A DNA stretch of 64,000 nucleotides from Escherichia phage BEU42: sequence record OM632669.1; one strand, given 5' to 3'. The position numbers were made by a program, and so were the translations under genes. Below the pieces are notes generated by a model that saw only the letters and a list, made by a program, of their open reading frames with translations, was not told where the DNA came from and searched no databases. Position 1 is the first letter of the stretch. Every line of letters starts with the position of its first letter. This document shows positions 1 to 51,323 of the stretch, in pieces.

Positions 1-2526
1 ATGCAAGTAGCTGACTCTACTGAACTGACCACATCAGCAACGTTGGGTGCTCAAGATGCTATGGCCTTCGGTATTTCTGAAGACCCAGCATTCTTCCAAA
101 TACTCAGTGCTAACCTCTATTCTAATCAGAAACTGGCAATGGTACGTGAGACATTGTGCAATAGCTGGGATGCTCATATTGAGGGGGATAAAACAGATAT
201 TCCTATCCATGTAACCATTGATAAAGATGGTTTCCTTATCTTCCGTGACTATGGTTCTGGTATTCCTAAAGATAAGATTCAAGAGGTCTATGGGGTATAT
301 GGTGCATCTACCAAGAAAGCTAATACTGCTTCCACTGGTGGCTTTGGCTTAGGATGTAAATCTCCTATGGCCTATACAGACAGTTTTACAGTCACATCTA
401 TGTGTGACGGAACCAAGACTGTCTATCACATTGCTAAATCTTCTGTTGAGACTAACGGTAAACCAGGGATTATTCCTATCGTTAGCGTACCTACTGAAGA
501 ATCAGGGCTTGAAGTTAAAATTCAGCTTCAGTCAGAAGATATTTTAGAAATTGATTCATATATTCGAGCCATTGTATTACATGGTGAGATTAAATGTATT
601 TACTGCAATCAGTATACAGGACCAAATACAGTAGAGTTATTGCCTGTACTGGGTATGTCTTTTGAACCAGGTAGCTATAACCTAGACCATAACACATGGC
701 ATAAATATTACATGGGCAGTCATTCAATATTTATCCGTTATGGTAATGTTATGTACCCTGCTTTGGATACTCCTGCTACACATGAAGCATTAAAACTGGT
801 TAAACAGTTTATGCAGGTTATTAACTGTAGTCGTATCGTTGTTCAGGCTGCCCCATCATCACTAGCTGTAGCACCTAGCCGTGAAACACTGTCATCTCAA
901 AAAATGACCGAAGACGGTATCGTAAATTTGGCTGTAGCTTTAGTAGATAATATGGAAGCAGATATTAAAGCTCGTCTTCCAAATGCTATTGAATATATTG
1001 GGAAGGCTATTAAAGAATATAGTCCTCACCGTTTTGAAGTAAATAGTTATTTGCCTTACACCAATTTAGTGCCTGATGTTATTGTCAGTCGTTATATGTC
1101 CTCTACTTTATTCAGTAAGCAATATGCCCATCTGTGTAAGAAATGGGGAAATATGGAAATTGACCGTCAACTTGAACATCCTGCACTGGCTCATTTCTCT
1201 GGTTCTCAAAAAGCCCATCTCCGTAAGCATTTAAAGAGGGCTAAGAATTTACGTAATTACAGGGAATTAACTAAAGTATTTACTGATATGGCTATTAAGC
1301 CAATGTTCAAAACCTTTGCTAAATTGGGGATTACTAAAGGTATTTCCCTATTTCATTATCAATACGGTGTTGAACTGTGGCGTAATAATATTGTTAATAG
1401 TGTCCGTAGAATACACTCATTAAACTTCATGACTTATAGTTCTAAGAAGTGCCGTGTATTTGTTACCCCACGTATTACCAATATTGAAGATAGTCTGGCT
1501 GGGTATCCAGAGTTTGATAATCTTTCTACTGAGACACTGGTAAAATATAACTCAATCATTGTCAAAGTTGGAACCAAGAAAGGTGAAGCAGAAGCTATGA
1601 CTAATCTGCTCACTAAAGCAGGATACGAAGTCATTAATATGGCTGAATATCATGAGTGGGATTGTATAGCTCGTAGACGTAAAGAGGAACAAGAGGCTAA
1701 ATTAGCCATTTCCAAATTACAAGCTAAGAAGACTACTAATAAGAAAAAGGTTAGTCCTAATCGTCTTATTAGTATGAATATCCTTGAAATACCAAAAGAG
1801 CATCGTAGCTATTCGAGTGAAGTATGTGGTTCTCACTACGCTTCTCGTTCTCATGACCGAATGGTTGATGTAGATACTCCCCAGTATTACATCATGCAGG
1901 AAGATATTAATAACTACACAGGAAGACTTGGTGTTCTTTCTATGTGGCAATTAACCCCTGCTACCATTAAAGCTGTGACTGTTGTTTGTCGTAATAAAAT
2001 TGAACGTAATAAAGCTATTAAGCGAGGTGCTGTTCATTTGGATGAATGGACTGCTCCGTATATTGCTTCAGTTCTTACATCCAAACAATTCATTAAGTAT
2101 GTCACTAAAGAACGTCAGAAAACGTTAAGTGATATTGGTATTTACTCCAAACACCTCAGATTACTGAGAGAACTGGATATTACATATGCCCCATTGAAAG
2201 GTCTGCGTTATGACCCAGAACTGGAGAATGCTTATCTCTTCTTACAAAGTAGTAGCTACCCTAAGCTACGTGCATTGTTAGGGAAGGGTCTGATTACTGA
2301 AGAAGAGTATTACTTCCTCAGTGATGTTGATGTGCATTGCAAGACTTTCAGTAAGTACTCGGAACTTCGTAGGATACCGAAGATGTTCCTTGATATTGAT
2401 GCTGGGGGTTATATGTTGGCTGCATGTACTGTAGACACATTGCTTCGTGAAATCGAACAATTCCCTGAATCAATCCCTGCAATCAAACTGCTTGTAAAAG
2501 CTGCTCTTAAACGGAATACAGACTGA
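1..2526 (+). CDS. GHKL (HATPase_c) ATPase-domain protein, rIIA-like; may be 5'-truncated at window edge
   Basis: 841-aa ORF starting at nt 1; motifs RDYGSGIP and TGGFGLGCKS resemble GHKL ATP-binding boxes; rIIA-like call is by domain type and size only. Confidence 0.45.
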   Translation: MQVADSTELTTSATLGAQDAMAFGISEDPAFFQILSANLYSNQKLAMVRETLCNSWDAHIEGDKTDIPIHVTIDKDGFLIFRDYGSGIPKDKIQEVYGVYGASTKKANTASTGGFGLGCKSPMAYTDSFTVTSMCDGTKTVYHIAKSSVETNGKPGIIPIVSVPTEESGLEVKIQLQSEDILEIDSYIRAIVLHGEIKCIYCNQYTGPNTVELLPVLGMSFEPGSYNLDHNTWHKYYMGSHSIFIRYGNVMYPALDTPATHEALKLVKQFMQVINCSRIVVQAAPSSLAVAPSRETLSSQKMTEDGIVNLAVALVDNMEADIKARLPNAIEYIGKAIKEYSPHRFEVNSYLPYTNLVPDVIVSRYMSSTLFSKQYAHLCKKWGNMEIDRQLEHPALAHFSGSQKAHLRKHLKRAKNLRNYRELTKVFTDMAIKPMFKTFAKLGITKGISLFHYQYGVELWRNNIVNSVRRIHSLNFMTYSSKKCRVFVTPRITNIEDSLAGYPEFDNLSTETLVKYNSIIVKVGTKKGEAEAMTNLLTKAGYEVINMAEYHEWDCIARRRKEEQEAKLAISKLQAKKTTNKKKVSPNRLISMNILEIPKEHRSYSSEVCGSHYASRSHDRMVDVDTPQYYIMQEDINNYTGRLGVLSMWQLTPATIKAVTVVCRNKIERNKAIKRGAVHLDEWTAPYIASVLTSKQFIKYVTKERQKTLSDIGIYSKHLRLLRELDITYAPLKGLRYDPELENAYLFLQSSSYPKLRALLGKGLITEEEYYFLSDVDVHCKTFSKYSELRRIPKMFLDIDAGGYMLAACTVDTLLREIEQFPESIPAIKLLVKAALKRNTD

Positions 2527-2534
2527 AAATTAAA

Positions 2535-3374
2535 ATGCCTGTTCTTAAAGTGATGTTCCATAAAGACACCAACGTAGCTACTGTACTGGATGCCAGTGGT
2601 AGCCTTAGTGATGGTTCCGTTGAGGTGGGTACTTTCCATCATCCTGATGAAACCTATCCTGATAGTGTAACTATCTATCATGGTGTACGTGACCTGCTGT
2701 ATAAACGCAGTGCTAAAGACCCATCTCAAACTGCTTCTTACCCAAATAACATTATCAATATGCAAGTTATCAGTATTGATATGAAGGCAACTCCTCGCCT
2801 GATTTTGGGTACTGCATTACCTCGTGTAATCTCTACTATTGAAGGCAAAGATGTAACCTGGCATGTAGATGTTGCTGGTGGTAAAGCACCATTGACTTAC
2901 AAGTGGCAGTTTAAAGCTAATACTGTAGGTGCTGCTTTCGCTGATATTGATTCCGGAGAGAATCCTACAGCTAAAACTGCAACTCTTATTAACCATGCAG
3001 TAACTGCTGAATCTGCTGGTACTTATAAAGTCATCGTTACTGATGCTAACGGTACTACTATCGAGAGTTCTTCTCTGCTGGTTGTAGGAGTTCAGGAACC
3101 ACCTGAAGTAGCTTCTATTGTTGCTTATCCAAGTCCACTGGCTCTATCAGTAGCTGATGATATTACTGATGGTAAAACAGTTAAATTTTCTTCCCTGCCT
3201 GCTGGCTCTTTGATTGGTACTCTGTCCATTAAGACCCAGCCTGACAGTGGTAAAGCTACTGCTGAGATTAGTGGTAATGTACTGACAGTTAAACCTGTAG
3301 CCGCAGGTGACACTACTGTAGTGGTCACCAACGGAACCAAGGAAGTAACTGTTACGGTTAATGTTACAGAATAA
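2535..3374 (+). CDS. Ig-like (Big_2-type) domain protein, possible capsid decoration/surface protein
   Basis: 279-aa ORF with ATG; beta-rich T/V/S repeats ending TVVVTNGTKEVTVTVNVTE typical of bacterial Ig-like domains; no hydrophobic segments. Confidence 0.45.
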   Translation: MPVLKVMFHKDTNVATVLDASGSLSDGSVEVGTFHHPDETYPDSVTIYHGVRDLLYKRSAKDPSQTASYPNNIINMQVISIDMKATPRLILGTALPRVISTIEGKDVTWHVDVAGGKAPLTYKWQFKANTVGAAFADIDSGENPTAKTATLINHAVTAESAGTYKVIVTDANGTTIESSSLLVVGVQEPPEVASIVAYPSPLALSVADDITDGKTVKFSSLPAGSLIGTLSIKTQPDSGKATAEISGNVLTVKPVAAGDTTVVVTNGTKEVTVTVNVTE

Positions 3375-3395
3375 TGTGATTGTTTTTATGAATGT

Positions 3396-3418
3396 AGCCC
3401 TCCTTGTGGGGGCTTTTT
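3396..3418 (+). terminator. rho-independent terminator candidate
   Basis: GC hairpin agccc...gggct followed by TTTTT just downstream of the stop at 3374. Confidence 0.45.
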
Positions 3419-3443
3419 AGTATCTATAGGAGAGTAAATAATT

Positions 3444-3758
3444 ATGGCTAATAAGAACCGTCTTCGTGTATGGCATATCCCTCAAGTACCCGGCAAAGCC
3501 TTCTATGTTGAAGTAGATTCAGTAGAAGAAGGTGTACGTATCATTGATATACTAGCCAACTATGACCTATTCCAGTATGAGAACAATATCAAAGGTGATT
3601 ACTGCAATGTCTCTGGTTTACAGATGTATGATGAACATATCACTGATGATGAAATGGAAGAGATGGGTCTGACTGACCGTTGGGTAGACTGGTACTATGA
3701 AGATGACCAGAGCTTTTTTGATAACCCGAAAGAGTATTTGAATAATCTCAAGAAGTAA
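3444..3758 (+). CDS. hypothetical small acidic protein
   Basis: 104-aa ORF, ATG preceded by GGAGAG; D/E-rich C-terminal half. Confidence 0.5.
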   Translation: MANKNRLRVWHIPQVPGKAFYVEVDSVEEGVRIIDILANYDLFQYENNIKGDYCNVSGLQMYDEHITDDEMEEMGLTDRWVDWYYEDDQSFFDNPKEYLNNLKK

Positions 3759-3798
3759 TTTCTTGGGGTTAATGACCCTTATTAATTCCTTATCCTTT

Positions 3799-3821
3799 GC
3801 CCTCCTATGGAGGGCTTTTTT
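3799..3821 (+). terminator. rho-independent terminator
   Basis: 7-bp stem gccctcc/ggagggc, 3-nt loop, then TTTTTT. Confidence 0.6.
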
Positions 3822-3832
3822 ACGGAGTACAA

Positions 3833-4039
3833 ATGTTTAAGTTTTTAGACCTTATCTGGGCAGTCATTTTGCTGGTTGCTACAGGCTTTGTATATGGCTT
3901 CTTGCTCCCATCAATGATGTCTGCTTTAGACAGCATCATTGTTGTTATGGGCTTGATAGTCTGTATTGTGTGGCCTCTTATCGTAGGCCGTATCGTTTAT
4001 CTTACAGTTAAGAAAAGGATGAGAAGAAAACATGTATAA
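3833..4039 (+). CDS. small membrane protein (2 predicted TM helices)
   Basis: ORF track gives 3797 (TTG); ATG at 3833 has GGAG 5 nt upstream; product MFKFLDLIWAVILLVATGFVYGFLLP... is hydrophobic; stop overlaps start of next gene. Confidence 0.45.
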   Translation: MFKFLDLIWAVILLVATGFVYGFLLPSMMSALDSIIVVMGLIVCIVWPLIVGRIVYLTVKKRMRRKHV

Positions 4040-4868
4040 GTACATTGCAGTAGCAATTGCAGGGCTAATCATTGCTCTAAGTTTAACGAGCTGCTATGAC
4101 CGAGTTGAACCAGGTAATGTAGGTATTATCGTTAACCGTCTCGGTGAAGATAAAGGCGTGGAAAATGAGGTTAAAGGTGTAGGCCGTTACTGGCTCACTT
4201 GGAATGAAGAACTTTATACATTCCCAACCTTTAAGCAGATGAAGACCTATGATGGTCTGTTCTACTTCCAACTGTCTGATGGTACTCAGATAGGCCACCA
4301 GATGGCTATCAGCTATAAAGTGAACCCTACTAAGGTAACTAATATCTTCCAGACGTATCGTAAGGGAGTTAATGAAATTACCGAGCAGGATTTACGCCAA
4401 CGTATTGCTGATGTACTTAACAGACAGGGTAACCTGATTAACACTGATACATTTATTGATGGTGGTAAATCTAAGCTACTAGATAGTGTCACTGACACAA
4501 TCCGTAAAGAGATGGAACCAGTGGGGATTGATATTATTGCTATCTCCTGGATTGGTGCTCCTGAATACCCTGATAACGTTAAACGTGCCATTAATGCCAA
4601 AGTAGAAGCTACTCAGAAAACTCTGCAACGTGAGCAAGAGATTCAACAACGTGTAGCTGAAGCTAATATGGAACGTGAACAAGCTAAGGGTGTAGCTGAT
4701 GCTATTCTGATTAAAGCTAAAGCAGAGGCTGATGCTATTCGTTTACGTGGTGAAGCACTCACCGAGAATCCAAATGTAATGCAACTGGAAGCTATTAATA
4801 AGTGGAATGGTACATTACCTACCACAATGATTCCTGGGGCTACTACACCTTTCGTTAATGTGAAATAA
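4032..4868 (+). CDS. SPFH/band-7 (stomatin/prohibitin-like) lipoprotein
   Basis: 278-aa ORF; N-terminal signal with lipobox-like LTSC; SPFH-like core followed by charged coiled-coil segment (EQEIQQRVAEANMEREQAKG...). Confidence 0.55.
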   Translation: MYKYIAVAIAGLIIALSLTSCYDRVEPGNVGIIVNRLGEDKGVENEVKGVGRYWLTWNEELYTFPTFKQMKTYDGLFYFQLSDGTQIGHQMAISYKVNPTKVTNIFQTYRKGVNEITEQDLRQRIADVLNRQGNLINTDTFIDGGKSKLLDSVTDTIRKEMEPVGIDIIAISWIGAPEYPDNVKRAINAKVEATQKTLQREQEIQQRVAEANMEREQAKGVADAILIKAKAEADAIRLRGEALTENPNVMQLEAINKWNGTLPTTMIPGATTPFVNVK

Positions 4869-4874
4869 CTAAGC

Positions 4875-4905
4875 AAACCCACCATTACGGTGGGTTTATT
4901 TTTTG
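4875..4905 (+). terminator. rho-independent terminator
   Basis: 9-bp stem aaacccacc/ggtgggttt then TTTATTTTTT, 7 nt after stop at 4868. Confidence 0.65.
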
Positions 4906-4930
4906 AAGTTATCTAACACTGGGTATTCCT

Positions 4931-5155
4931 ATGAAAGTAAATGTTTTACGTCGTAAGAAAGTTCCTTTCTTTCAAATCAATTGTGGTTCATGTTTTCAAC
5001 ACGATGATGACTACTATATGAAGTGTAGTTATCAATCTAAAGAACACTTCTATGGTGTGAATTTACAAACAGGGCATCTGTTCACATTTGATAATAATGA
5101 CTTTGTTTATCCTGTGACTTTAGAAGCATGTATTCCTGACCCACTTAATAAATAG
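4931..5155 (+). CDS. hypothetical protein
   Basis: 74-aa ORF with ATG; contains CGSC motif; no recognisable domain. Confidence 0.35.
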   Translation: MKVNVLRRKKVPFFQINCGSCFQHDDDYYMKCSYQSKEHFYGVNLQTGHLFTFDNNDFVYPVTLEACIPDPLNK

Positions 5156-5156
5156 T

Positions 5157-5513
5157 ATGGCTCAAGAAAAGAATCGTCGTCAGACACTTATCGAACGTAT
5201 TCAGGCCAGAATCAAATTACAGGACTTAGGCTATACCGTTAATGGTCAGCCTAGCCTCTGTCACATCTGGACTGGTTCACATTCAGGTAATGGACGCGGT
5301 GGGCAATATGGCAGGATTTCCGTGAATGGAGTTACCTCTGCAACTCACATTATTGCCTATACCCATTATCATGGTTATATCCCCAATAAGATGCAAGTAG
5401 ACCATCTCTGTAATAATCGTCTGTGCTGTAACCCTGAACATCTTGAATTGGTTACTCACCAAGAGAACCAGAGAAGAAGGGCTAAGCGTTCTAAATCTAA
5501 AGGAAATAAATAA
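5157..5513 (+). CDS. HNH endonuclease (free-standing homing endonuclease-like)
   Basis: 118-aa ORF; HNH signature VDHLCNNRLCCNPEHLELVTHQEN. Confidence 0.7.
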   Translation: MAQEKNRRQTLIERIQARIKLQDLGYTVNGQPSLCHIWTGSHSGNGRGGQYGRISVNGVTSATHIIAYTHYHGYIPNKMQVDHLCNNRLCCNPEHLELVTHQENQRRRAKRSKSKGNK

Positions 5514-5684
5514 ATGATTAAAAAACTTATTTGTAAACTTATTGCAGCAATCTTAATTAGTATTATTGGTATTGCATGGGTAATTTCTACTCCAGATAAC
5601 GTTATGCAACAAATTTATTATGCTGTATATACATCAACCTCTTTTGTTTGGGTTTATGTAATGTACCGTATTTGTAGCGACTAA
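5514..5684 (+). CDS. small hydrophobic protein (56 aa, about 2 TM), absent from ORF track
   Basis: ATG immediately after HNH stop (taaATG); translates MIKKLICKLIAAILISIIGIAWVISTPDNVMQQIYYAVYTSTSFVWVYVMYRICSD. Confidence 0.35.
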   Translation: MIKKLICKLIAAILISIIGIAWVISTPDNVMQQIYYAVYTSTSFVWVYVMYRICSD

Positions 5685-5713
5685 TACTTAATATAGCTTA
5701 ACTGGAGAGTAAA

Positions 5714-6772
5714 ATGGCTAGTATTGATTCTATTGCCGTATGTAATCCACGGCAGGTACGTAAATTTGTTGAACACTGTATCCGTTCAGGATTGGTTCCA
5801 TTTATCACTTCATCTCCTGGTATGGGTAAATCTGCAATTGTTCATCAGATTGCAGAAGACTTTGGCCTGAAACTGATTGACCATCGTCTGTCTACTTCAG
5901 CACCAGAAGACCTGTCAGGTCTGCCTCGTTTTAAAGAAAATGGTCGTGCTGAATTTGCTCCATTTGACGAGCTATTCCCACTGGAAGGGGATACTGTACC
6001 TGAAGGATTTAATGGCTGGCTTCTCTTTCTCGATGAGTTTAACTCTGCTCGTAAAGAGATTCAGGCTGCTGCTTATAAATTGGTACTCGACCGTATGACT
6101 GGTCAGAAGAAGCTACATCCTTATGTAGCTATCGTATGTGCTGGTAACAAAGCAACTGACCGTGCCATTACTAATAACCTGTCTACAGCTATGCAATCAC
6201 GTCTTATTCATCTGGAAATGGAGACTGATTTTGATGTCTTTATGGAAGATGTAGCTATCCCTAACAAATGGGATGAGCGTGTAATTGCATTCCTGAATGC
6301 TAACCCAAATAAACTGAATGATTTTGAACCAGACCATCAAGAGAAGACTTTCTGTTGTTCTCGTACATGGGAGTTCGTTAACAAGATTGTTTCCATTCTC
6401 CCACCGGGACCGATTGATAGTGAAATGACTCTGCTATTAGCAGGCACTATCACCTCTGGTGTAGCAACATCATTCGTCCAGTTTACTCAGGTCTATAGCA
6501 ACATGGTGTCTTTGAATGAGATTTTGGATAATCCTAAGAAAGCTCGTATGCCTGAAGACAATAACCTGTTGTGGGCTGTAGTCACTTCACTGATTAACAA
6601 TACTGACGAAGATAATCATTCGAAAATCTTTGATTACGTTGAACGTATGCCATTTACGTTCAAGGTTTTGTACTACCGTTCCGTAGGTAGTCTGGTTCCA
6701 GCTTTGGTTAAATTACCGAACTGGCGTGTTGCTGCAATCACATTATCTAAATACGTTCATGGTTCCAATTAA
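5714..6772 (+). CDS. AAA+ ATPase, MoxR-like
   Basis: Walker A SSPGMGKSA, Walker B LLFLDEFNSA; 352 aa; followed by VWA protein as in MoxR-VWA pairs. Confidence 0.7.
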   Translation: MASIDSIAVCNPRQVRKFVEHCIRSGLVPFITSSPGMGKSAIVHQIAEDFGLKLIDHRLSTSAPEDLSGLPRFKENGRAEFAPFDELFPLEGDTVPEGFNGWLLFLDEFNSARKEIQAAAYKLVLDRMTGQKKLHPYVAIVCAGNKATDRAITNNLSTAMQSRLIHLEMETDFDVFMEDVAIPNKWDERVIAFLNANPNKLNDFEPDHQEKTFCCSRTWEFVNKIVSILPPGPIDSEMTLLLAGTITSGVATSFVQFTQVYSNMVSLNEILDNPKKARMPEDNNLLWAVVTSLINNTDEDNHSKIFDYVERMPFTFKVLYYRSVGSLVPALVKLPNWRVAAITLSKYVHGSN

Positions 6773-6938
6773 CAAGAAAGGAGTTACAGACCTCCTGTAT
6801 GTTGCTGGCTTTAACGGTGAAAAAATTACCGTATATGCCCCAAGTCTGGCTGCTGCTAAACAAAAGGCAGTTGAATACTTTCGTCCAAAGAAACGTGTAG
6901 CCCATACCATTTGGGTTCATCTCGCAGAGGAAAACTGA
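6762..6938 (+). CDS. hypothetical small protein (start uncertain)
   Basis: ORF track 6726..6938; in-frame ATG at 6762 (MVPINKKG...) fills gap between AAA and VWA genes. Confidence 0.25.
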   Translation, partial: VPINKKGVTDLLYVAGFNGEKITVYAPSLAAAKQKAVEYFRPKKRVAHTIWVHLAEEN

Positions 6939-6939
6939 T

Positions 6940-8082
6940 ATGTCCATGACAGATGCTCAATTAACCCGTGAATATGACAGATGTCAGGCTAAAGCCTTTA
7001 TGGGCAAAACTGCTGCATTCTTTGGTTCACTGTTATGTTCTCTGAAGTTCCGTTGGGTAAAAGATGGCTGTGATACAGCACAAACCGATGGTGAGCATCT
7101 CGAATGGAATCCTGATTGGTTTGAGAGTCTATTACCTGAATCTCGTGTAACAGTACTCATGCATGAACTATGGCATGTCGGCTTACTGCATTCTGTTCGT
7201 ATGGGTTCTCGTGACCCAGAAGTATGGAATTATGCCTGTGATATTTATATCAACAATCAGCTTATTCAGGATGGCTACAGCTTTATAGGAATCGAAAATT
7301 GCTGGAAAGACTCTAAGTATGCTGGTTGGGCTGAAGAACAAATCTATGATGACCTCATGAGCAAACAGATACGTCCTCCTAAAGCATCAGGTGCTTTTGG
7401 GGCTGGCTCAGGTGGTGACATGAAACCTTCCACTTCGAAGGCTAGTCAGGTAAATATTGTCAATAATGTAGTAAGAGCCATGCACCAACAGAAACTATCT
7501 GGTGGTTCTTTGCCTGGGGTATTACCTGGAAAAATGGAAGAAGTTATTACTCAATTCCTGAAACCAGTAGTACCGTGGCAGGTCTTACTTGAACGCTTCT
7601 TCAATGACCTGCAAGAAACTTACTACTCATGGCAACGGCCTAATCGTAGATACCCTGATATGTACCTACCATCTCCTATGGATGATGACGGTAGACTGGA
7701 ACATCTGGCTTATTTCCTCGATACATCTGGCTCCATTAAACCTAAAGATGCTTTACGCTTTAGCTCTGAAGTGGCCTATGTAAAAGAGAAATACCAGCCT
7801 CAGAAGATGACTCTAGTTCAGTTCACTACAGAGATTGTAGATGAACAAGTCATTGAAGATGGTGATAAGTTTACTGATGTCACTATCAAAGGACGGGGTG
7901 GTACTAGTCTGGTTCCTGTACGTGAGTGGATTATTAAGCATAAGCCTACTGCTGCCATTATCTTTACTGACTTAGAAGTCAGACCGATGGAGCCATTGCC
8001 ATTTGACATTCCTGTCATATGGGTAGTTATTCGTAACCCTGGTGCACAAGTTCCATTTGGGAAAGTTATTAACATTACATGA
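6940..8082 (+). CDS. VWA-domain protein with N-terminal HExxH metallopeptidase-like motif (partner of MoxR ATPase)
   Basis: 380 aa; MHELWHVGLLH motif; MIDAS-like DTSGS motif (YFLDTSGSIKP). Confidence 0.6.
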   Translation: MSMTDAQLTREYDRCQAKAFMGKTAAFFGSLLCSLKFRWVKDGCDTAQTDGEHLEWNPDWFESLLPESRVTVLMHELWHVGLLHSVRMGSRDPEVWNYACDIYINNQLIQDGYSFIGIENCWKDSKYAGWAEEQIYDDLMSKQIRPPKASGAFGAGSGGDMKPSTSKASQVNIVNNVVRAMHQQKLSGGSLPGVLPGKMEEVITQFLKPVVPWQVLLERFFNDLQETYYSWQRPNRRYPDMYLPSPMDDDGRLEHLAYFLDTSGSIKPKDALRFSSEVAYVKEKYQPQKMTLVQFTTEIVDEQVIEDGDKFTDVTIKGRGGTSLVPVREWIIKHKPTAAIIFTDLEVRPMEPLPFDIPVIWVVIRNPGAQVPFGKVINIT

Positions 8083-8088
8083 GGTTTT

Positions 8089-8595
8089 ATGGTTGTTAAT
8101 GGAAAACTATTGTTAGGTGCTATACCCATTAAGGGCATGGTTAACAGTAAACTCAGTTCAGGTGAGACTACATTTGGACTGGGAGAAGCTGGTTATGACA
8201 TCCGTATTAAACAGGATGTTACCTTCTACCGATTTCTTGGTTTGATTCCCTGCATCAAGATTAAGGATGAAGGAAAGACCAAGTGGAAGTTTGGCACTTT
8301 CACATTAGCTTCTGCAATGGAACGTTTCAATGTACCTGCTGGCCTAGTGGGTATTGTCCATGACAAATCTACATGGGCAAGGCGTACATTATCTGTATTT
8401 AATACCGTTATTGAACCAGGATGGTCAGGCTATCTGACTTTAGAACTGGTTTATCACGGTCGTAAAAAACTTCATATCCCTGCTGGTTCAGGTATTGCTC
8501 AGGTCATCTTCCATGAGACAGTAGAGAATACTACCTACAATGGACGATACCAGAACCAGCCTAATCAACCTGTAGCTGCTAAGTCAGCTCGTTAA
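8089..8595 (+). CDS. dCTP deaminase / dUTPase-superfamily protein
   Basis: 168 aa; GYDIRI and beta-rich pattern typical of dCTP deaminase. Confidence 0.5.
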   Translation: MVVNGKLLLGAIPIKGMVNSKLSSGETTFGLGEAGYDIRIKQDVTFYRFLGLIPCIKIKDEGKTKWKFGTFTLASAMERFNVPAGLVGIVHDKSTWARRTLSVFNTVIEPGWSGYLTLELVYHGRKKLHIPAGSGIAQVIFHETVENTTYNGRYQNQPNQPVAAKSAR

Positions 8596-8608
8596 TTAAG
8601 GAAATATC

Positions 8609-8809
8609 ATGTCTATCTTTACTACTAAGGTTAATGGTCAGAAAGTTACTGTTGTTGCTCGTAACGTAGCTTACGTTACTGAAAACAGTGAAGGCCGTGG
8701 TGTAATTACTTTTACTAACGGTGATTCCATTGATACCCAGGTAGGTTATGACTCTATCCGTCGTAACGTAGCTAAAGCACTTGATGGTGCTAAAGACATC
8801 GCAGAGTAA
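8609..8809 (+). CDS. hypothetical protein
   Basis: 66-aa ORF, ATG with AAGGAAA upstream; followed by two hairpins. Confidence 0.45.
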   Translation: MSIFTTKVNGQKVTVVARNVAYVTENSEGRGVITFTNGDSIDTQVGYDSIRRNVAKALDGAKDIAE

Positions 8810-8884
8810 GGTGTTTACAGTAATGGGGCTATATAGTAGCCCCATTTATGGAAATTCCTTTCTCCATTGCTTAGTCCCAACTAT

Positions 8885-8907
8885 GCCCACTTTATGTGGG
8901 CTTTTTT
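8885..8907 (+). terminator. rho-independent terminator
   Basis: stem gcccac/gtgggc then TTTTTT; preceded by a second hairpin at about 8823-8845. Confidence 0.6.
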
Positions 8908-8922
8908 AATTAGAGACTATGT

Positions 8923-9165
8923 ATGAGCAAACTAGGTATACACGTTTACATAGATGAAGCCGAGAAGATATACCCCTATACATTATTTAGTTCCAGTGAT
9001 TTACTTCAGATGAAGGTAAACTCCATCATCGTAAACTACTGGTATAACGATAAGAATTGGGATTACTGGGCTGCACGACAGAAGAGTAAGAACAAGAAAG
9101 ATATATTCAAAAGCAAATCAACTCCACATATGTTTCCTTGGTATCACAGAAACCGGAGATATTGA
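8923..9165 (+). CDS. hypothetical protein
   Basis: 80-aa ORF; weak RBS; stop overlaps next start (TGATG). Confidence 0.3.
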   Translation: MSKLGIHVYIDEAEKIYPYTLFSSSDLLQMKVNSIIVNYWYNDKNWDYWAARQKSKNKKDIFKSKSTPHMFPWYHRNRRY

Positions 9166-9626
9166 TGACAAGAATACCATTTTTAAAACCTAGAAAACGA
9201 ACACCAAAGCTGTATCAAAAGACCTCAGAAGACGGTTTAGCCTTGAACCAGAAAGCTATTAAGGCCGTTAGTACACTGGTTCAAGGTAAACAGGATGCTG
9301 TTGCTTTACGTCTTGTTGTTGAGCAAATCTTAGTTGCTCTGACACTGGCTCAAGTAGCTAAACAAGAAGGTAAACAAGAAACCTGTAAAACAGCATTAGG
9401 TGCTTTGTACTGGTTGTATAAAGACCTTGCTGACAACTTTGAAATGTCTATGGATAAGTGGCAGGGCATTTCTTGTGTACTTGCTCTTAGAGAAGGACAG
9501 GAATTACTGTCTACTCTACCAAAAGCAGAATTTAAACTAGCCTACACTGGAGCACATAAGATTGTTCTTGGTTCCAGTAAGGACATCTTTAACCACCTCA
9601 AGCTATTCAAGGCTTTCTATGATTAA
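9165..9626 (+). CDS. hypothetical protein
   Basis: ORF track start 9138; ATG at 9165 has GGAG 7 nt upstream; 153 aa. Confidence 0.4.
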   Translation: MTRIPFLKPRKRTPKLYQKTSEDGLALNQKAIKAVSTLVQGKQDAVALRLVVEQILVALTLAQVAKQEGKQETCKTALGALYWLYKDLADNFEMSMDKWQGISCVLALREGQELLSTLPKAEFKLAYTGAHKIVLGSSKDIFNHLKLFKAFYD

Positions 9627-10560
9627 TGCAAAAATCCTCGCTGATAGTATTACTCTTTCTGGTGACCGTCTGGTAACAATGGAGCTGGTTTATCCGCGTT
9701 TTATTCATTCAGAATTTATGACTCACCGAGCACTTAATCGTAATGCTTCCAGTAGTCGTGCTATTCCTACCCAACGCCTTATTGAGCAAGTTCGTAATGA
9801 ACCAGTAATGCCAGTACATTGGGGTAAGAACCAGAAAGGAATGCAGGCAAGTGAAGAACTCACTCCTATGGAGATTAAGGATGCTGAGTTCATTTGGGAA
9901 AATGCTGCCTCTGCTGCTGCTGTGTATGCTGAACAACTTCGTCGTGGACAAGTACATAAGCAGATTGTTAATCGTATTCTGGAACCATTCACGCATATCC
10001 GTGTAGTAGTGACAGCTACTCAATGGAATAACTTCTTTGGTTTACGTATCCATCCCGATGCTCAACCAGAGATTTGTGAATTGGCTACTAAGATGAAGGA
10101 ACAGTATGACCAATCAAAACCCCGTACCTTGTTGGCTGGGGAATGGCATTTGCCGTACATTACTAATAGTGATTACCTCGATGCTTACGATTATTGCAAA
10201 CATCAACGAATTACTCGTGATGAACCAAGTAGTGATGAAATTAATTGCCTGTTAGTAAAAATCTCTGCTGCTCGTTGTGCCCGTGCTTCTTATAACAACT
10301 TTAAAGGCACTCCTTCTACTATCGAAGAAGACCTGCGTTTGTTCTCTAAATTGGTTGAAAGTAAGCCTGTTCACGCAAGTCCTACTGAACATCAAGCAAC
10401 TCCTCAGCATGTAATGAGTAAAGGCTTAAATGAGCCTACTGACCCATCTACATGGGAAAATGGCATTAGCCACATGGACAGAAATTTACGTTTATACTCA
10501 GGTAATCTGTGTGGCTGGATTCAATTCCGTAAGCTGCTTGCAGATGAATGCATCCACTAA
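9619..10560 (+). CDS. thyX: flavin-dependent thymidylate synthase (ThyX-like)
   Basis: ORF track start 9562; ATG at 9619 overlaps previous stop (ATGATTAA); ThyX-like motif THRALNRNASSSR. Confidence 0.5.
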   Translation: MINAKILADSITLSGDRLVTMELVYPRFIHSEFMTHRALNRNASSSRAIPTQRLIEQVRNEPVMPVHWGKNQKGMQASEELTPMEIKDAEFIWENAASAAAVYAEQLRRGQVHKQIVNRILEPFTHIRVVVTATQWNNFFGLRIHPDAQPEICELATKMKEQYDQSKPRTLLAGEWHLPYITNSDYLDAYDYCKHQRITRDEPSSDEINCLLVKISAARCARASYNNFKGTPSTIEEDLRLFSKLVESKPVHASPTEHQATPQHVMSKGLNEPTDPSTWENGISHMDRNLRLYSGNLCGWIQFRKLLADECIH

Positions 10561-10605
10561 GTAGGTCTTTTGTGGGTGTAGACCACTCATAATAAACTCC
10601 GCTAT

Positions 10606-10633
10606 TTGCCTCCTACATGGAGGCAATTTTTTT
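10606..10633 (+). terminator. rho-independent terminator
   Basis: 8-bp stem ttgcctcc/ggaggcaa then TTTTTTT. Confidence 0.65.
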
Positions 10634-10657
10634 GATTCCATGTACATAGGAGGCCAT

Positions 10658-10891
10658 ATGGCTAAACCACGTAAATTTCGTATTAAGGGTAAGCCTGTAA
10701 TGGGTAGTGCTGCTGGTCAGTCACATGAGAAAGGAGACATTGTTTATGAATGCCTTCAGTATGATTACGGCGTTGCTCATGATGACACTCGTGCTACTGG
10801 TGTCCCACATACCTCAGTAACTCTTGAGGAAGATGGTAGCTACCCATTCTTCACTGTTCCTACTCATAACCTGGAAGAAATTCATGATTGA
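10658..10891 (+). CDS. hypothetical protein
   Basis: ATG at 10658 with AGGAGG 5 nt upstream (ORF track start 10640 lacks RBS); 77 aa. Confidence 0.4.
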   Translation: MAKPRKFRIKGKPVMGSAAGQSHEKGDIVYECLQYDYGVAHDDTRATGVPHTSVTLEEDGSYPFFTVPTHNLEEIHD

Positions 10892-11210
10892 CCCAAATAT
10901 CATCCATGCCAAAACAGGCGAATCCCATAAGCTGTCTGAATATTCCAAAGTAGAAGATATTGCAGTTTGTCCTGCAAATATTGCTTCTCTTTGTATCTGT
11001 ATTGCAGAGCTATCTAAAGAACGCCAACTATGGCTATCTCCTAATAAAACAATGGTTCAGGCAGGTCTGGCAGAAGTACAACGTATGCTGGATGAATGGT
11101 CTGAAGACCAGATGTTCATTGATGGCAATGCAGAAGCAATAACCGATGACATGGCCTCTGATATGGCTGTGTTTGTATTACAAGCAATGGCTGAAAAGCG
11201 TAGTAGTTAA
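10884..11210 (+). CDS. hypothetical protein
   Basis: ATG at 10884 overlapping upstream stop (ATGATTGA); 108 aa. Confidence 0.4.
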   Translation: MIDPNIIHAKTGESHKLSEYSKVEDIAVCPANIASLCICIAELSKERQLWLSPNKTMVQAGLAEVQRMLDEWSEDQMFIDGNAEAITDDMASDMAVFVLQAMAEKRSS

Positions 11211-11234
11211 TTAATAATTTACTGGAGAAAATTC

Positions 11235-13325
11235 GTGAAACGAAATTATCTCGCCATTATTGCCCTGTCAGTAGACAGTCGTAACCTCACCTTATGGCAA
11301 CCAGATGGTTCTACTATGGTCATCCCCCAAGGGGATGCCCGTGTACCACGTATTGTTGCTGAAGCAAAAGAAAAGAATCTTACCCCAGGTAAGATTATCG
11401 AAGTGGATGTCACTATCGAAGCTCAGATTCGTCAGGAGTTTCTGGACGCTGAACGTGATACAGGTGGCTTTGTTAAATTCTTCCGTATTACTAAGAAGAG
11501 GCTACAAGAGTTCTTCTTAGGGGAAGAGGAAGAACAAGTCCCTTATGTATCACCTGTAGAGTTAGGTGCTAAACCCACTGCTTTCAATGCTTTTATTGCT
11601 AATGCTGTAGGCAAAACTCTTGCTGTACAACATGCATCATTAAAAGCACCTGAACCAGAAATGACAGTTACTCATGAGCGTTTTTACGGTAACTATGCTG
11701 TATGGATTACAGATGTAGACCCACGGAATCATCGTATTGAGGTTATTCATGTTATCCGTGAAATCTCAGGAAGAACCAGTGAATATGTCAATAACCTGCT
11801 GGCTCAACCAACCCCATTCAAAGTATTTGATTGGCTCACAGAGACGCAGGCTAAAGAGTTTGTAAGACGTCTGAATAACACTCAGGGTGTTATCTCTGTC
11901 TATAACAAACTGGAAGACGGTATTCCTGCTAAGGTTGCTGTAAAGGCCACAAAGCCAACCAATAAGGAAAAGCTGGAAGCTGCATCAACTAAGCTGAAAG
12001 CTATGGGTGCTGTCGCTACTGATGCTTATGAGTTTCATACTGACTTGAATGAGAATGAAGAGACTATTGTAGCTGTAGTGAATGATAAGGTGGTTCCTGA
12101 TGTTCAGAACCTACACCGCCACATCCGTCAATCTGCAAACCTGAAAGACTATAAAGGCTTTACTAAGTTCCTTGAACGTCTGTCTACTGTAATTGATAAA
12201 CGTCGTCACTCTGTTGAAGACCTGATGAAGTTTATGGAAAAAGGTGACCTGCCAATTGCAGATGATGGCTCCATTGTTATCTTCAAACGTCTGGAAAGCA
12301 AAGACAATCCTGAACATCTCAAAGACGTAATGGATGATGTATTTGTTGATTGCCATTCTAGGAAGATTGAGCAATGCGTTGGTATGCGTGTAATGGTTAA
12401 AGAAAACCTTGTAGACCAGAACCGTCGTAAAGACTGTTCTCATGGTTTGCACGTAGCTTCTCTGCAATACATTCGTAATTTCTCAGGCAACGTAACCATT
12501 ATTGGTAAAGTTGCTCCAGAGGATGTATTTGCAGTACCAGAATACGATGTTACTAAGATGCGTGTATCTGCTTATCACATCATTACCAAGCTACCTGATG
12601 CTATTCGTGACCATGTTAATAATGGCAATCCAATCTCCACCATTGAGGGTGGTACGGAAATCCTGAACATGGTTCTCAGTGGTAATCACCCTGAACCTTC
12701 CCGTCAGGTACTGGTTGGTGGTCATTATGGAACCAATCTGACTTATTCAGAACTCACCCGTAATTATCTGGATGATGAGGAAGACATCGTTATTCCAGAT
12801 GAACCAGTAATTAAGAAAACTGCCTTGAATATGGAAGAGAGCTTTACGGCAACTAATCCTAAAGCTGAACCAGTGAAGGCAACGGATGTTAAACCTATTA
12901 AGAAGACTAAGATGGAAATTCTTAAAGACCTTTGGAACCAGTTCCTGAAAGCAGAGACTTCTAATGAAGCTATTACACTGGCTGATGAAATCATTGCTGC
13001 TAAGGGCAAATGTAAGAAGTCATGGGCTTCTTTAGGCTTCAGTGGTGACATGGTTCAGAAACTGATTGATGCTCGTGCTAATAAACCTAAGCCAGAAAAA
13101 GTAGTCAAACAGGATAAAACTGTTGCACCTAAGAAAACTACAATCACTCGTAGTCGGAATGCTGATGTTATTCGTAGCTATCTGAATGACAAAGGTATGT
13201 CTGATTACTGTAAAGCTCATGCCATTCACGATGTGAAACGTGCTGCTAAGAAATCTTATGCTGCACTGGGTCTGACTCCTGAAGAATGCAGCCAAATTGA
13301 TAAACTGAAGCATCATTTGAAGTAA
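11235..13325 (+). CDS. conserved hypothetical protein (696 aa), GTG start
   Basis: long ORF beginning GTG with GGAG 8 nt upstream; no motif recognised. Confidence 0.5.
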   Translation: MKRNYLAIIALSVDSRNLTLWQPDGSTMVIPQGDARVPRIVAEAKEKNLTPGKIIEVDVTIEAQIRQEFLDAERDTGGFVKFFRITKKRLQEFFLGEEEEQVPYVSPVELGAKPTAFNAFIANAVGKTLAVQHASLKAPEPEMTVTHERFYGNYAVWITDVDPRNHRIEVIHVIREISGRTSEYVNNLLAQPTPFKVFDWLTETQAKEFVRRLNNTQGVISVYNKLEDGIPAKVAVKATKPTNKEKLEAASTKLKAMGAVATDAYEFHTDLNENEETIVAVVNDKVVPDVQNLHRHIRQSANLKDYKGFTKFLERLSTVIDKRRHSVEDLMKFMEKGDLPIADDGSIVIFKRLESKDNPEHLKDVMDDVFVDCHSRKIEQCVGMRVMVKENLVDQNRRKDCSHGLHVASLQYIRNFSGNVTIIGKVAPEDVFAVPEYDVTKMRVSAYHIITKLPDAIRDHVNNGNPISTIEGGTEILNMVLSGNHPEPSRQVLVGGHYGTNLTYSELTRNYLDDEEDIVIPDEPVIKKTALNMEESFTATNPKAEPVKATDVKPIKKTKMEILKDLWNQFLKAETSNEAITLADEIIAAKGKCKKSWASLGFSGDMVQKLIDARANKPKPEKVVKQDKTVAPKKTTITRSRNADVIRSYLNDKGMSDYCKAHAIHDVKRAAKKSYAALGLTPEECSQIDKLKHHLK

Positions 13326-13392
13326 GTAGGTTAACTATTCAAGTAGCTCCGGTTGAAATATACTGGAGCTATCTTTGAAGAGGATACATACT

Positions 13393-13788
13393 ATGGCCAA
13401 AGTTTATCGTGCTAACCGTAAAGCCCATGATGACGATATTATTCGTATGAATGCAGTCGGTTTATCATTGGGAACCATTGCTAAAACACTGGGTGTTCAC
13501 CCCACTACAGTTACCTTACGATTACGCTCTCTTGGTATTGAACCAGCCGACACACGTCGAACATTTATGGAGAACGTACTAGCACCATTACCTACTCACG
13601 TAGCTGATTGGTTATCAGAACAAGTAGGACCAAAGTATGAGATTCGACAATACGTCCGAGACTTATTACTAGAAGCCTACAATAATCGTCATAATCATAA
13701 GGAAACTGCTCATGAACGATTCCTCAAAAGATACGTTGGTACAAACTCAGAACTGGTTTCTGAAGGCAGTACCCAGTCCAACGAGTAA
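13393..13788 (+). CDS. helix-turn-helix DNA-binding protein
   Basis: ATG at 13393 with AAGAGGA upstream (track start 13375 is TTG); HTH-like LSLGTIAKTLGVHPTTVTLRL. Confidence 0.4.
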   Translation: MAKVYRANRKAHDDDIIRMNAVGLSLGTIAKTLGVHPTTVTLRLRSLGIEPADTRRTFMENVLAPLPTHVADWLSEQVGPKYEIRQYVRDLLLEAYNNRHNHKETAHERFLKRYVGTNSELVSEGSTQSNE

Positions 13789-14173
13789 AAACATTAGTAC
13801 TCAGATTGGTTGTCATCTGGAAGAAGTAGTTGAGATGCTGGAAGAATTGGCTCCAAATTCTGAAGAAGCATACGATACACTTCATAATGCCATTGTAGCT
13901 TTAACTGAATTGTCAGAATTAATGAAATCCTCTGATAAAGAAGTTTATGCACCTAACAGCAATCGCTTAGCTATTCTGGATGCACTGGCAGACCAGATTG
14001 TTACAGCAACTGGCATCGGTACTTTCTTGGGTATGAACGTACCTGGAGCACTCACTGAAGTGAACCGTTCTAATTATTCAAAATTTGAAGATGGTGAGCC
14101 TGTTTTCAATGAGAATAAGAAAGTAATGAAAGGTAAGGATTACACTCCGCCTGATTTAACCCCATTCATTTAA
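13712..14173 (+). CDS. MazG-like nucleotide pyrophosphohydrolase (tentative)
   Basis: 153 aa; EE-rich helix HLEEVVEMLEEL resembling MazG EExxE motif; overlaps upstream gene by 77 nt. Confidence 0.35.
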   Translation: MNDSSKDTLVQTQNWFLKAVPSPTSKNISTQIGCHLEEVVEMLEELAPNSEEAYDTLHNAIVALTELSELMKSSDKEVYAPNSNRLAILDALADQIVTATGIGTFLGMNVPGALTEVNRSNYSKFEDGEPVFNENKKVMKGKDYTPPDLTPFI

Positions 14174-14177
14174 AAGA

Positions 14178-14201
14178 GCCGCCCATATAGGGCGGTTTTT
14201 G
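14178..14201 (+). terminator. rho-independent terminator
   Basis: stem gccgccc/gggcgg(t), loop atata, then TTTTT. Confidence 0.6.
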
Positions 14202-14215
14202 TATCTGGAGAACTC

Positions 14216-15535
14216 ATGTATAAAAGTACTACTAAGCTGCCACTAAATCCTGGTCAAGAGGCAGCGGCAGAAGGTTTCTTCGACTTTCTGCTCGACCCCA
14301 ATGCTTCTGAACTTCGTATTAGTGGACCTGGTGGTACAGGCAAGACATTTACAATGGCTCATATGATTGACGAGATTATGCCTCGTTATCATGAGACATG
14401 TAGTCTGATGGGAATCCCTGCTCTCTATAACGAAGTTATTATGACTGCTACTACTAATAAGGCAGCAGAAGTATTAGCCCGTGCAACAGGACGTCCTACG
14501 TCTACCTATCATTCCTTTCAAGGTCTGACAGTACGGAATAACCTGAAGACTGGGGAAGCAGACCTGATTCCATCTAAGTCCTTCAGTATCAAAAAGAATA
14601 AGGTCATTTTTATTGATGAAGCATCAATGATTGACCGTAAACTGAAGAAGTTCATTAACGAAGGTACTCACCAAAGTAAGATTGTTTACTTAGGTGATAA
14701 ATGCCAATTGTTACCTGTAAAGGAAACTTCTTCTCCTGTCTACAATGACAGTAGCATTAAAGAGTTTATGCTGACCCAGCAGATGCGTACTGATGTCCCT
14801 GAACTCCATGCACTGCATGAACAGCTTCGTGGAACCATTGAAGGTAAGCATGGATTCCTGCCTATTAAAGCAGTTCCAGGTATTATCGACTGGATTGAAG
14901 ATGGTGATGAAATGAGAAAAGAAGTCGAAGGTCATTTCATGACTAAGACTGACACTCGTATTGTTGCCTATACCAACCAACAGGTTGTTAACTATAACAC
15001 CTTCATTCGAGCTATGAATGGATTCCACGGGGAGTTCTGTATTGGTGAAGAGTTAGTAAGTAACTCTGCTATTCAGATTGGTGCTGGTGATCGCCTTAGT
15101 ATTGAACAGGAATGCCAGATTGTTGACCAGGATTCTGCTACTCGTAAGATTCTGATTGATTCCTCTGGCATCGAATTAGAAGTACGTGATTGCACCCTGG
15201 ATACTGGTTATGGTGGTGTCTTTGAAGGTATCCCTATTCCGGTAGATATGGATTATTTCATTCGTTTGCAAAAGTACTATGCACACCAAAAGAACTGGGA
15301 ACGTCACTTCTATTTGAAAGAAACATTCCCTGAACTTCGAGCATTACATGCTTCTACTGTGCATAAGTCTCAAGGTTCTACCTACGACACCATCTTTATT
15401 GATGCTACTGATTTATCTACTTGCCGTCAGCCTGATGTAGTAGCACGTCTGCTTTATGTAGCAGTATCTCGTGCTCGTCATCGTGTTGTGTTCTATGGCT
15501 CTTTGGCAGAGAAATTTGGTGGTCTGGTTCGCTAA
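14216..15535 (+). CDS. SF1 DNA helicase, Dda/RecD-like
   Basis: Walker A GPGGTGKTF, Walker B VIFIDEASM, C-terminal TVHKSQGST and YVAVSRARHR motifs. Confidence 0.8.
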   Translation: MYKSTTKLPLNPGQEAAAEGFFDFLLDPNASELRISGPGGTGKTFTMAHMIDEIMPRYHETCSLMGIPALYNEVIMTATTNKAAEVLARATGRPTSTYHSFQGLTVRNNLKTGEADLIPSKSFSIKKNKVIFIDEASMIDRKLKKFINEGTHQSKIVYLGDKCQLLPVKETSSPVYNDSSIKEFMLTQQMRTDVPELHALHEQLRGTIEGKHGFLPIKAVPGIIDWIEDGDEMRKEVEGHFMTKTDTRIVAYTNQQVVNYNTFIRAMNGFHGEFCIGEELVSNSAIQIGAGDRLSIEQECQIVDQDSATRKILIDSSGIELEVRDCTLDTGYGGVFEGIPIPVDMDYFIRLQKYYAHQKNWERHFYLKETFPELRALHASTVHKSQGSTYDTIFIDATDLSTCRQPDVVARLLYVAVSRARHRVVFYGSLAEKFGGLVR

Positions 15536-15544
15536 GGAGAACTT

Positions 15545-16072: not shown

Positions 16073-16079
16073 GGTCTGT

Positions 16080-48539: not shown

Positions 48540-51323
<2,784 letters not shown>

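Follow-up and report, generated by a model that had tools for sequence, protein, structure and literature searches.

The window analyzed here, a 64,000-nucleotide stretch of DNA from Escherichia phage BEU42 (sequence record OM632669.1), comes from an N4-species coliphage. BEU phages are 100% identical to the window, with Escherichia phages BEU5, BEU13, BEU14, BEU44 and BEU51 showing 100% identity over positions 4000–7000, and Escherichia phage N4 matches the same interval at 98.0% identity. When the window was compared with the whole N4 genome using blastn, N4 6751–15459 proved collinear with window positions 2527–11235, and the surroundings of the two genes considered here are therefore intact. 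The identities of these genes are certain. Positions 5157–5513 (plus strand) hold N4 gp22 (YP_950500/ABK54391; 9381–9737 in N4), a 118-residue HNH_3/His-Me finger endonuclease with an I-PpoI-like fold that is labeled 'endonuclease' in both N4 records, and positions 5514–5684 (plus strand) hold N4 gp23 (YP_950501/ABK54392, annotated in EF056009/NC_008720), a putative small membrane protein of 56 residues. The original prediction had placed a canonical, free-standing HNH endonuclease at 5157–5513, followed through a taaATG junction by a small hydrophobic ORF, and both genes are indeed found at these positions; it was also right to count this as the second HNH gene of the window, the other (17947–18561) lying in the DNA polymerase gene. 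Its description of the 56-residue ORF as unannotated was mistaken: both genes have been part of the N4 reference annotation since deposition, and gp22 homologs are routinely listed in papers on N4-like genomes.

The gene preceding gp22 is N4 gp21 (4931–5155, plus strand; YP_950499), which encodes a Cys-rich protein of 74 residues with no function assigned (phrog_7431, E 2.2e-24) and differs from its N4 counterpart by one synonymous change. The gene following gp23 is N4 gp24 (5714–6772, plus strand), encoding an AAA+ ATPase; this Schitoviridae signature gene served as the anchor for our comparative survey. Genes in this neighborhood are packed end to end. The gp22 start lies 1 nt past the gp21 stop with no Shine–Dalgarno sequence of its own; gp23 starts directly after the gp22 stop and does possess one, a Shine–Dalgarno-like AAGGAA within the 3′ end of gp22 (5500–5505, plus strand), 8 nt before the gp23 ATG; and gp24 starts 29 nt past gp23, with GGAG upstream. 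A terminator-like hairpin with a T-run (4875–4897, plus strand; a 9-bp stem, then ATTTTTT) follows gp20, which encodes an SPFH protein, and is the likely upstream boundary of a gp21–gp22–gp23(–gp24) transcription unit. Other plus-strand hairpins of this kind follow gp17 (3396–3414) and gp18 (3799–3815), and no terminator-like site was found between 4898 and gp24. As far as spacing and signals go, gp21 to gp24 read as one unit with translational coupling, so gp22 and gp23 would both belong to a tightly packed unit of the middle region, which is presumably transcribed by the phage RNAPII as are N4 middle genes. A scan for sigma-70 promoters was uninformative (7 matches versus 12 expected). The searchable literature on N4 gp21, gp22 and gp23 consists of genome-description papers, with no report on expression, essentiality or function, and the core-genome paper of 2014 makes no mention of an endonuclease. 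On a larger scale, the genes from gp17 to gp24 form a variable accessory island. What it contains is not the same in N4, Moo19, KP8 and G7C-like phages, and it also houses membrane- or exclusion-type genes, namely gp18 (P22 gp17-like), gp19 and the SPFH gene gp20. NCBIfam holds no model that matches gp21, gp22 or gp23, and tblastn revealed no paralog of any of the three in the window.

Fold and active site of the gp22 nuclease

The gp22 ORF begins with ATG, and its product matches Pfam HNH_3 (PF13392) over residues 62–106 with an E value of 8.6e-20 (70.6 bits against a cut-off of 24.8), in addition to matching Pfam zf-His_Me_endon and phrog_1872. Its amino-acid sequence is 100% identical to that of N4 gp22, with the same length and the same place between gp21 and gp23; the two genes are separated by three synonymous nucleotide changes and no nonsynonymous change. 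The AF2 model of the protein (pLDDT 93) adopts the ββα-metal fold, and its closest folds are those of homing enzymes, as it superimposes on both I-PpoI, a His-Cys box homing endonuclease (PDB 1a73/1a74), and I-HmuI, an HNH homing/nicking endonuclease of Bacillus phage SPO1 (PDB 1u3e). In a profile search of PDB sequences, the gp22 motif D82-H83-L-C85-x4-C90-x4-H95...N104 (codons at 5400–5468, plus strand) aligns with S97-H98-L-C100-x4-C105-x4-H110...N119 of I-PpoI, a match that is weak (E 0.08; overall identity only ~17–20%) and usable only together with the fold match. In I-PpoI, the aligned positions serve as general base, as metal-binding Asn and, in three cases, as ligands of the first zinc. 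H83 and N104 of gp22 coincide with I-PpoI H98 and N119, and C85, C90 and H95 coincide with C100, C105 and H110. By this correspondence H83 would be the general base and N104 a metal ligand, and C35, C85, C90 and H95 would form a single structural Cys3His zinc site in which C35, as the probable equivalent of I-PpoI C41, provides the fourth ligand. Among 92 homologs, C35, D82, H83, C85, C90 and H95 are invariant and N104 is conserved in at least 90%. A single-sequence search of the PDB with gp22 brought up nothing but plasminogen kringles, which are chance matches.

Judged by fold and active-site residues, gp22 looks catalytically intact and would work as a compact endonuclease of the I-PpoI/I-HmuI type. 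The likeness to I-PpoI has limits. I-PpoI carries a second, C-terminal zinc cluster (C125/C132/H134/C138), whereas gp22 has no Cys or His past H101 and ends in a basic helix (residues 101–116); because this second cluster is absent, we leave gp22 outside the His-Cys box family in the strict sense, I-PpoI-like though its working may be. The genetic settings differ as well, as I-PpoI is encoded by an intron in nuclear rDNA and gp22 is a free-standing phage gene. I-HmuI possesses extra C-terminal DNA-binding modules and is encoded by an intron in a DNA polymerase gene, and gp22 shares neither feature. Pfam detects no NUMOD-type DNA-binding module in gp22; I-PpoI likewise has none.

Constraint and inheritance of gp22

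Within the N4 species, gp22 is fixed. The gene occurs in 15 of 15 records at 100% amino-acid identity, with the region collinear in one piece in every record, and thus shows no presence/absence polymorphism in this sample. The claim that the endonuclease is mobile finds little support in this comparison, and the observation named in advance as refuting it is made within the species, where gp22 occupies the same locus in all 15 records, and also in the sister genera of Moo19 and KP8. The other HNH gene of the window, which was found through collinearity with N4, provides an internal contrast. This ORF (17947–18561) belongs to the same Pfam family, HNH_3, and resides in the same genome; however, it carries a NUMOD4 module, splits the DNA polymerase gene by means of a 702-bp insertion relative to N4 (17909–18610), is carried by 11 of the 15 N4-species records but missing from the other 4, and is found again at the identical site in the phages Pollock, SP5M and PD205. 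It is truly mobile and serves as a positive control for gp22, which has none of these attributes: no NUMOD4 module, no split essential gene, no polymorphism within the species and no recurrence of this kind across genera.

When genera are compared, gp22 and the flanking core genes are equally divergent at synonymous sites. For the pairs N4–Moo19, N4–KP8 and Moo19–L011 (an HNH-carrying locus), pS of gp22 is 0.58, 0.80 and 0.45, compared with 0.63, 0.64 and 0.50 for gp16 (RNAP2) and 0.65, 0.67 and 0.53 for gp24. Extending the comparison to 32 loci (496 pairs) gave a median pS(gp22)/pS(gp24) of 1.13 and a minimum of 0.71, with no outlier and no pair suggesting recent transfer, although most inter-genus pS values lie near saturation (0.6–0.8), such that the test excludes only transfers younger than the genus splits. 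The distance matrices of gp22 and gp24 are congruent (Mantel r = 0.54; 0 of 2000 permutations reach this value). There is accordingly neither the lowered divergence relative to flanks nor the incongruent phylogeny that horizontal movement would leave, with the proviso that both comparisons have little power beyond saturation. By several independent tests, gp22 does not appear to be mobile now.

In contrast to its unremarkable synonymous divergence, the nonsynonymous divergence of gp22 is approximately three-fold lower than that of the flanking core genes. Its dN/dS of 0.02–0.08 is the lowest among nine genes tested (neighbors, 0.10–0.33) and falls below those of the core genes gp16, gp24 and gp25. 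In terms of identity, gp22 reaches 85–89% within Enquatrovirinae where gp24 reaches 63%, and 61–63% across subfamilies where gp24 reaches 50–53%, and it is the most conserved gene of the gp17–gp24 interval. In N4 and its relatives, gp22 would therefore be a fixed and vertically transmitted gene under very strong purifying selection, and selection of this strength implies that the phage gains from the nuclease activity, or at least that losing the gene is costly. Possible benefits may lie in cutting the DNA of co-infecting relatives that lack the HNH gene, or in processing phage DNA. A more specific proposal, which we regard as tentative, is that gp22 is a domesticated, minimal I-PpoI-like nuclease with a job that serves the phage, rather than a selfish element. 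That job could be to cut or nick phage DNA at a specific site, during replication or during formation of the 3′-overhanging genome ends; alternatively, gp22 could be a weapon against co-infecting HNH-less N4-like phages. If true, domestication would explain why gp22 is more conserved than signature genes in phages whose hosts range from Escherichia to Xanthomonas and roseobacters. The broader reading that we prefer, of a resident nuclease gene transmitted vertically under strong selection, must also account for the distribution of gp22 across the family.

Patchy family distribution and an ORF-exact indel

Among 63 gp24-anchored N4-like loci from an IMG/VR survey, 30 carry gp22. In 27 of these a gp22 homolog (51–100% identity) lies 0.02–6.4 kb upstream, and in 3 more the gene is found across the permutation point of the contig. 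A further 29 loci are without gp22 although 8.7 kb or more of sequence lies upstream in each, a call based on ±10 kb loci and on a pattern-based scan that keeps 80 of 109 matches, such that a divergent copy elsewhere could escape; the remaining 4 loci were unassignable. Half of the family does without gp22, and the published signature genes, among which gp24 is counted (PMC7650795), do not include it, which shows that an N4-like lifestyle does not in general require the gene. Neither a replacement nuclease nor a co-occurring partner emerged when 2080 ORFs from 54 loci were clustered and HNH-minus loci were compared with HNH-plus loci; the only skewed clusters were clade-specific small ORFs, with nothing relevant in Pfam. 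The position of the gene also varies, as gp22 in other lineages directly precedes rIIA, gp24, the dCTP deaminase gene (dcd) or unrelated genes, and in roseophages its homolog comes after rIIB (PMC2784036). A patchy distribution and a varying position are, in the long term, also what a still-active homing element leaves behind, an observation that runs against a vertical reading.

The G7C-like loci, which by gp24 are the nearest relatives of the Moo19 lineage, lack gp22 in 7 of 7 cases and permit the boundaries of the indel to be defined. In a nucleotide alignment of L011 with four HNH-minus loci, the gp17 stop, the terminator hairpin and the GGAGC ribosome-binding site are kept in both classes. 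The HNH ORF of L011 starts at the exact position of the next gene's ATG in the HNH-minus loci and ends in an ATGA overlap that restores the start of that next gene. Because this alignment is clean, the indel between L011 and the G7C-like loci is exactly one ORF, situated between a shared Shine–Dalgarno sequence and the next ATG, and the comparison with HNH-less relatives that had been proposed for defining insertion boundaries thus gave a precise answer. An indel of one ORF is what a free-standing endonuclease cassette would produce, whether by its arrival or by being lost precisely. Of the two, loss by the G7C lineage would be the more parsimonious, because the same pair of HNH gene and small gene occurs in Erwinia phages of another subfamily.

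At this wider scale, gp22 shows the sporadic occurrence and ORF-sized intergenic indels of a mobile gene, and family patchiness together with the ORF-exact indel fits an ancient mobile origin. The patchy distribution, and the absence of exactly this ORF from G7C-like phages, argue that gp22 is probably a homing-type cassette of old standing whose inheritance is now vertical; most likely it started out as a free-standing cassette of the kind that inserts between a ribosome-binding site and the start codon that follows. We consider it unlikely that gp22 is a currently active, selfish homing endonuclease that spreads from one co-infecting phage to another by cutting HNH-less genomes near its insertion site. 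Such activity would agree with the homing enzymes as closest folds, with the label 'putative homing endonuclease' given to gp22 in the literature (PMC2784036), with its occurrence in about half of the N4-like loci at intergenic positions that differ between lineages, and with a presence/absence difference of exactly the ORF. However, it would not predict a gene without polymorphism in 15 N4-species records in which the polymerase-gene HNH is polymorphic, with synonymous divergence equal to the flanks in all 496 pairs, with distances congruent with those of gp24, and with a dN/dS below those of gp16, gp24 and gp25; the missing NUMOD-like module points the same way, though I-PpoI is without one too. 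The notion that a mobile endonuclease marks this region as a hotspot for mobile DNA therefore needs to be divided. The variable gp17–gp24 island, the patchiness in the family and the ORF-exact indel agree with it, whereas the fixation of gp22 in the species and a pS equal to that of the flanks do not, and the statement is at best one about deep history. Vertical inheritance of a formerly mobile gene remains the reading we favor for gp22.

gp23, its adjacency to gp22 and the reading of the locus

The ATG-initiated gp23 ORF encodes a hydrophobic product (GRAVY 1.01) that matches phrog_23946 over its full length (E 3.9e-37; residues 1–56 of a 56-position profile). It has the same position and length as N4 gp23, with which it shares 54 of 56 residues, the two differences being the conservative substitutions I24V and I34L. 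One robust transmembrane segment is predicted at residues ~5–24 (5526–5585, plus strand; maximum KD 19-mer 2.62, Hessa sum –1.4 kcal/mol). The second half of the protein, rich in Tyr, Trp, Thr and Val, forms a helix that is marginally hydrophobic (KD19 0.9, Hessa +6.0 kcal/mol) and is not predicted to insert into the membrane alone. So few homologs exist that no deep alignment could be built, and the AlphaFold model is therefore a single-sequence prediction; it shows a helical hairpin (residues 2–25 and 29–55; pLDDT 79), and the homolog in KP8 is annotated there as a 'putative 2 transmembrane helical domains containing protein'. The two-helix membrane peptide of the original prediction is thus borne out in part: two helices are plausible and the first would span the membrane, but two membrane spans are not secured. 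Overall, gp23 would be a small protein of the inner membrane in which an N-terminal transmembrane helix is followed by a second helix that is aromatic and conserved; it is probably translated from its own Shine–Dalgarno sequence.

The gp23 family is confined to Enquatrovirus and KP8-like phages. An exhaustive HMMER search of 1.84 billion cluster representatives yielded 3 real members and one probably spurious match of 592 residues, and a word-indexed search yielded one cluster. Relatives likewise annotate the gene, as a hypothetical protein. The homologs from KP8-like Klebsiella phages (KP8 gp031, itself a match to phrog_23946 with E 2.6e-33, and relatives) are 43–53% identical to gp23 with in-frame gaps and keep the motif WV.S.P.N.MQQIY.AV..ST. 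Against them, gp23 gives pN 0.41 and pS 0.72, a dN/dS of 0.24 with saturated synonymous sites. These properties suggest an independent, fast-evolving accessory gene of two genera.

Adjacency invites the view that gp22 and gp23 are a functional pair, with gp23 as a membrane partner or immunity factor of the nuclease, or that gp23 is an exclusion or host-takeover factor traveling with the endonuclease. The TAA-ATG juxtaposition and the shared transcription unit are in keeping with this view, as are the membrane- and exclusion-type genes gp18, gp19 and gp20 of the same island and, in several N4-like phages (enterobacterial and Erwinia), a 4-nt overlap between the HNH stop and a small transmembrane ORF. 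However, the ORF abutting the HNH gene in Moo19, KP8 and Ea9-2 is of a different family, phrog_7508 rather than phrog_23946; its product is small, with an N-terminal transmembrane helix and a tail of the form C..CV..F.PEK, and the gene is absent from N4. In KP8, the gp23 counterpart gp031 is the second gene after the HNH gene, with another gene between, and G7C-like phages keep the phrog_7508 gene with no HNH gene at all. A small transmembrane ORF adjoins the HNH gene in only 9 of 67 gp22-anchored loci, compared with a background of 12.7% among raw ORFs of 40–100 residues, and gp22 spans many genera where the gp23 family spans two. The proposed link between mobile endonuclease and small membrane ORF is consequently lineage-specific, and a functional pair is improbable. 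Because few lineages place gp23 behind the HNH gene, the two do not constitute a conserved two-gene module, and they would adjoin one another because genes in this variable accessory island are tightly packed. That gp23 serves in host takeover or exclusion is pure conjecture.

It is similarly doubtful, to a degree that makes it a poor account of the data, that gp23 is a chance open frame in the AT-rich spacer between gp22 and gp24. In shuffles of the local sequence 2.5% of positions show a stretch of 56 open codons, and on the non-coding strand 8.5% do; such a stretch is in itself weak evidence for a gene. Furthermore, the comparison with N4 (2 synonymous and 2 nonsynonymous changes) is uninformative, Pfam and NCBIfam give no match, and the searchable literature holds no expression data for gp23. 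It is the comparative evidence that makes this ORF a real gene: the frame is intact in KP8-like phages with its motif conserved and pN below pS, the family has its own PHROG entry, a Shine–Dalgarno sequence stands at the right spacing, and the neighboring genes are otherwise packed end to end. Finally, a packaging-associated role for gp22, as an HNH protein of the HK97 gp74 or GVE2 type that helps terminase to cut concatemers, is the least credible alternative: terminase-associated HNH proteins are common in phages and gp22 is small (118 residues), free of extra domains and strongly conserved, but it lies in the middle, DNA-metabolism region ~57 kb from the terminase gene gp68 (N4 9381–9737 versus 66617–68209 on the other strand) and is absent from half of the N4-like genomes, all of which have the same packaging genes.

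The account that we favor, with a rough probability of 0.6, is that gp22 is a resident, vertically inherited and catalytically intact homing-type endonuclease of ancient cassette origin, held under strong selection, and that gp23 is an unrelated, lineage-restricted small membrane protein. As a discovery this matters little, both genes having long been annotated. The useful outcome is a correction, namely that a free-standing HNH gene alone is no evidence of recent mobility, and the window illustrates how a fixed, constrained HNH gene and a polymorphic one in the same genome can be separated by simple population and dS tests. The mildly surprising point is the strength of the constraint on an accessory nuclease, and a dN/dS of 0.02–0.08 makes gp22 a reasonable, low-cost candidate for knockout and mixed-infection experiments in the N4 model system.

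An endonuclease gene within the DNA polymerase gene

Comparison with N4 reveals a 702-bp insertion at window positions 17909-18610, which contains a NUMOD4+HNH_3 endonuclease gene (ORF 17947-18561) and interrupts the DNA polymerase gene (gp39), leaving it as two ORFs, at 15993-18044 and 18524-19354. The insertion is present in 11 of the 15 N4-species records and absent from the other 4, and the same site is occupied by the polymerase-gene endonuclease in phages Pollock, SP5M and PD205. The inserted gene encodes a truly mobile homing endonuclease, and one that was already known, being annotated in the records of relatives.

A divided gene was also observed in L041, a G7C-like contig from IMG/VR, in which the AAA+ ATPase gene gp24 (contig region 8932-10852) occurs as two ORFs, 8932-9138 and 10178-10852, separated by ~1 kb that holds a 215-aa ORF (9148-9795). 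This interruption may be a further case of mobile DNA inserted into a core gene.

The 'HNH endonuclease' label given by RefSeq to N4 gp25 (window 6940-8082), and likewise to its homologs in Moo19, KP8, Philippe, phiAxp-3 and Ea9-2, is a propagated mis-annotation. Pfam detects no HNH domain in gp25; its matches are to DUF2201_N, a putative metallopeptidase (E = 2.6e-86), and to the VWA-like DUF2201 domain.

Organization of the record relative to N4

The window opens with the ATG of the rIIA-like gene (window 1-2526; N4 15460-17985), which adjoins gp17 (N4 6751 onward) at junction 2526/2527, with rIIB coming later, at 11236. Simple circular permutation of N4 does not yield this gene order, and neither does that of the BEU5 record, which also begins at rIIA; the rIIA/gp17 order at window 1-2527 looks like a rearrangement of the record or assembly rather than biology. 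At window position 63754, N4 coordinate 69890 is joined directly to 3447, so that this position lacks the terminal repeat and the early genes gp1-gp10; the junction probably has the same origin, as an artefact of assembly or permutation. Two further differences from N4 were observed: replacement of ~140 nt in the gp35/gp36 area (window 13848-13987; N4 20599-20728), and deletion of 100 nt within gp53 at window 42857 (N4 48893-48992).

Gene content around the gp22 endonuclease gene

Upstream of gp22, the gp20 gene (window 4032-4868) encodes an SPFH/Band-7 lipoprotein in N4 and Moo19, and roughly the same position is taken by a ClpP-like protease in Philippe (2531-3280 of its locus) and Ea9-2 (3411-4199). 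In bacteria, genes for SPFH proteins often share an operon with genes for NfeD/ClpP-type proteases, and the alternation may for this reason be meaningful. Third-position GC in gp23, the small membrane protein gene at window 5514-5684, is 0.19, markedly below the 0.33-0.36 of gp20, gp22 and gp24, which is compatible with either a separate origin or a strong amino-acid composition bias.

Members of phrog_7508, a conserved family of small single-pass membrane proteins, combine a TM helix at the N-terminus with a tail of the form C..CV..F.PEK. In Moo19, in KP8-like phages and in N4-like phages of Erwinia, the family's gene comes next after HNH and overlaps it at ATGA (locus positions 4174-4344 in Moo19, 4430-4621 in KP8 and 4760-4936 in Ea9-2); it is kept without HNH in G7C-like phages (for example, 9269-9457 in locus L013) and is absent from N4. 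The small proteins Moo19 gp34 (locus positions 4341-4538) and KP8 gp028 (3902-4105) are homologs of one another. The HNH pair precedes their gene in Moo19 but follows it in KP8, a difference in position that demonstrates local gene shuffling around HNH.
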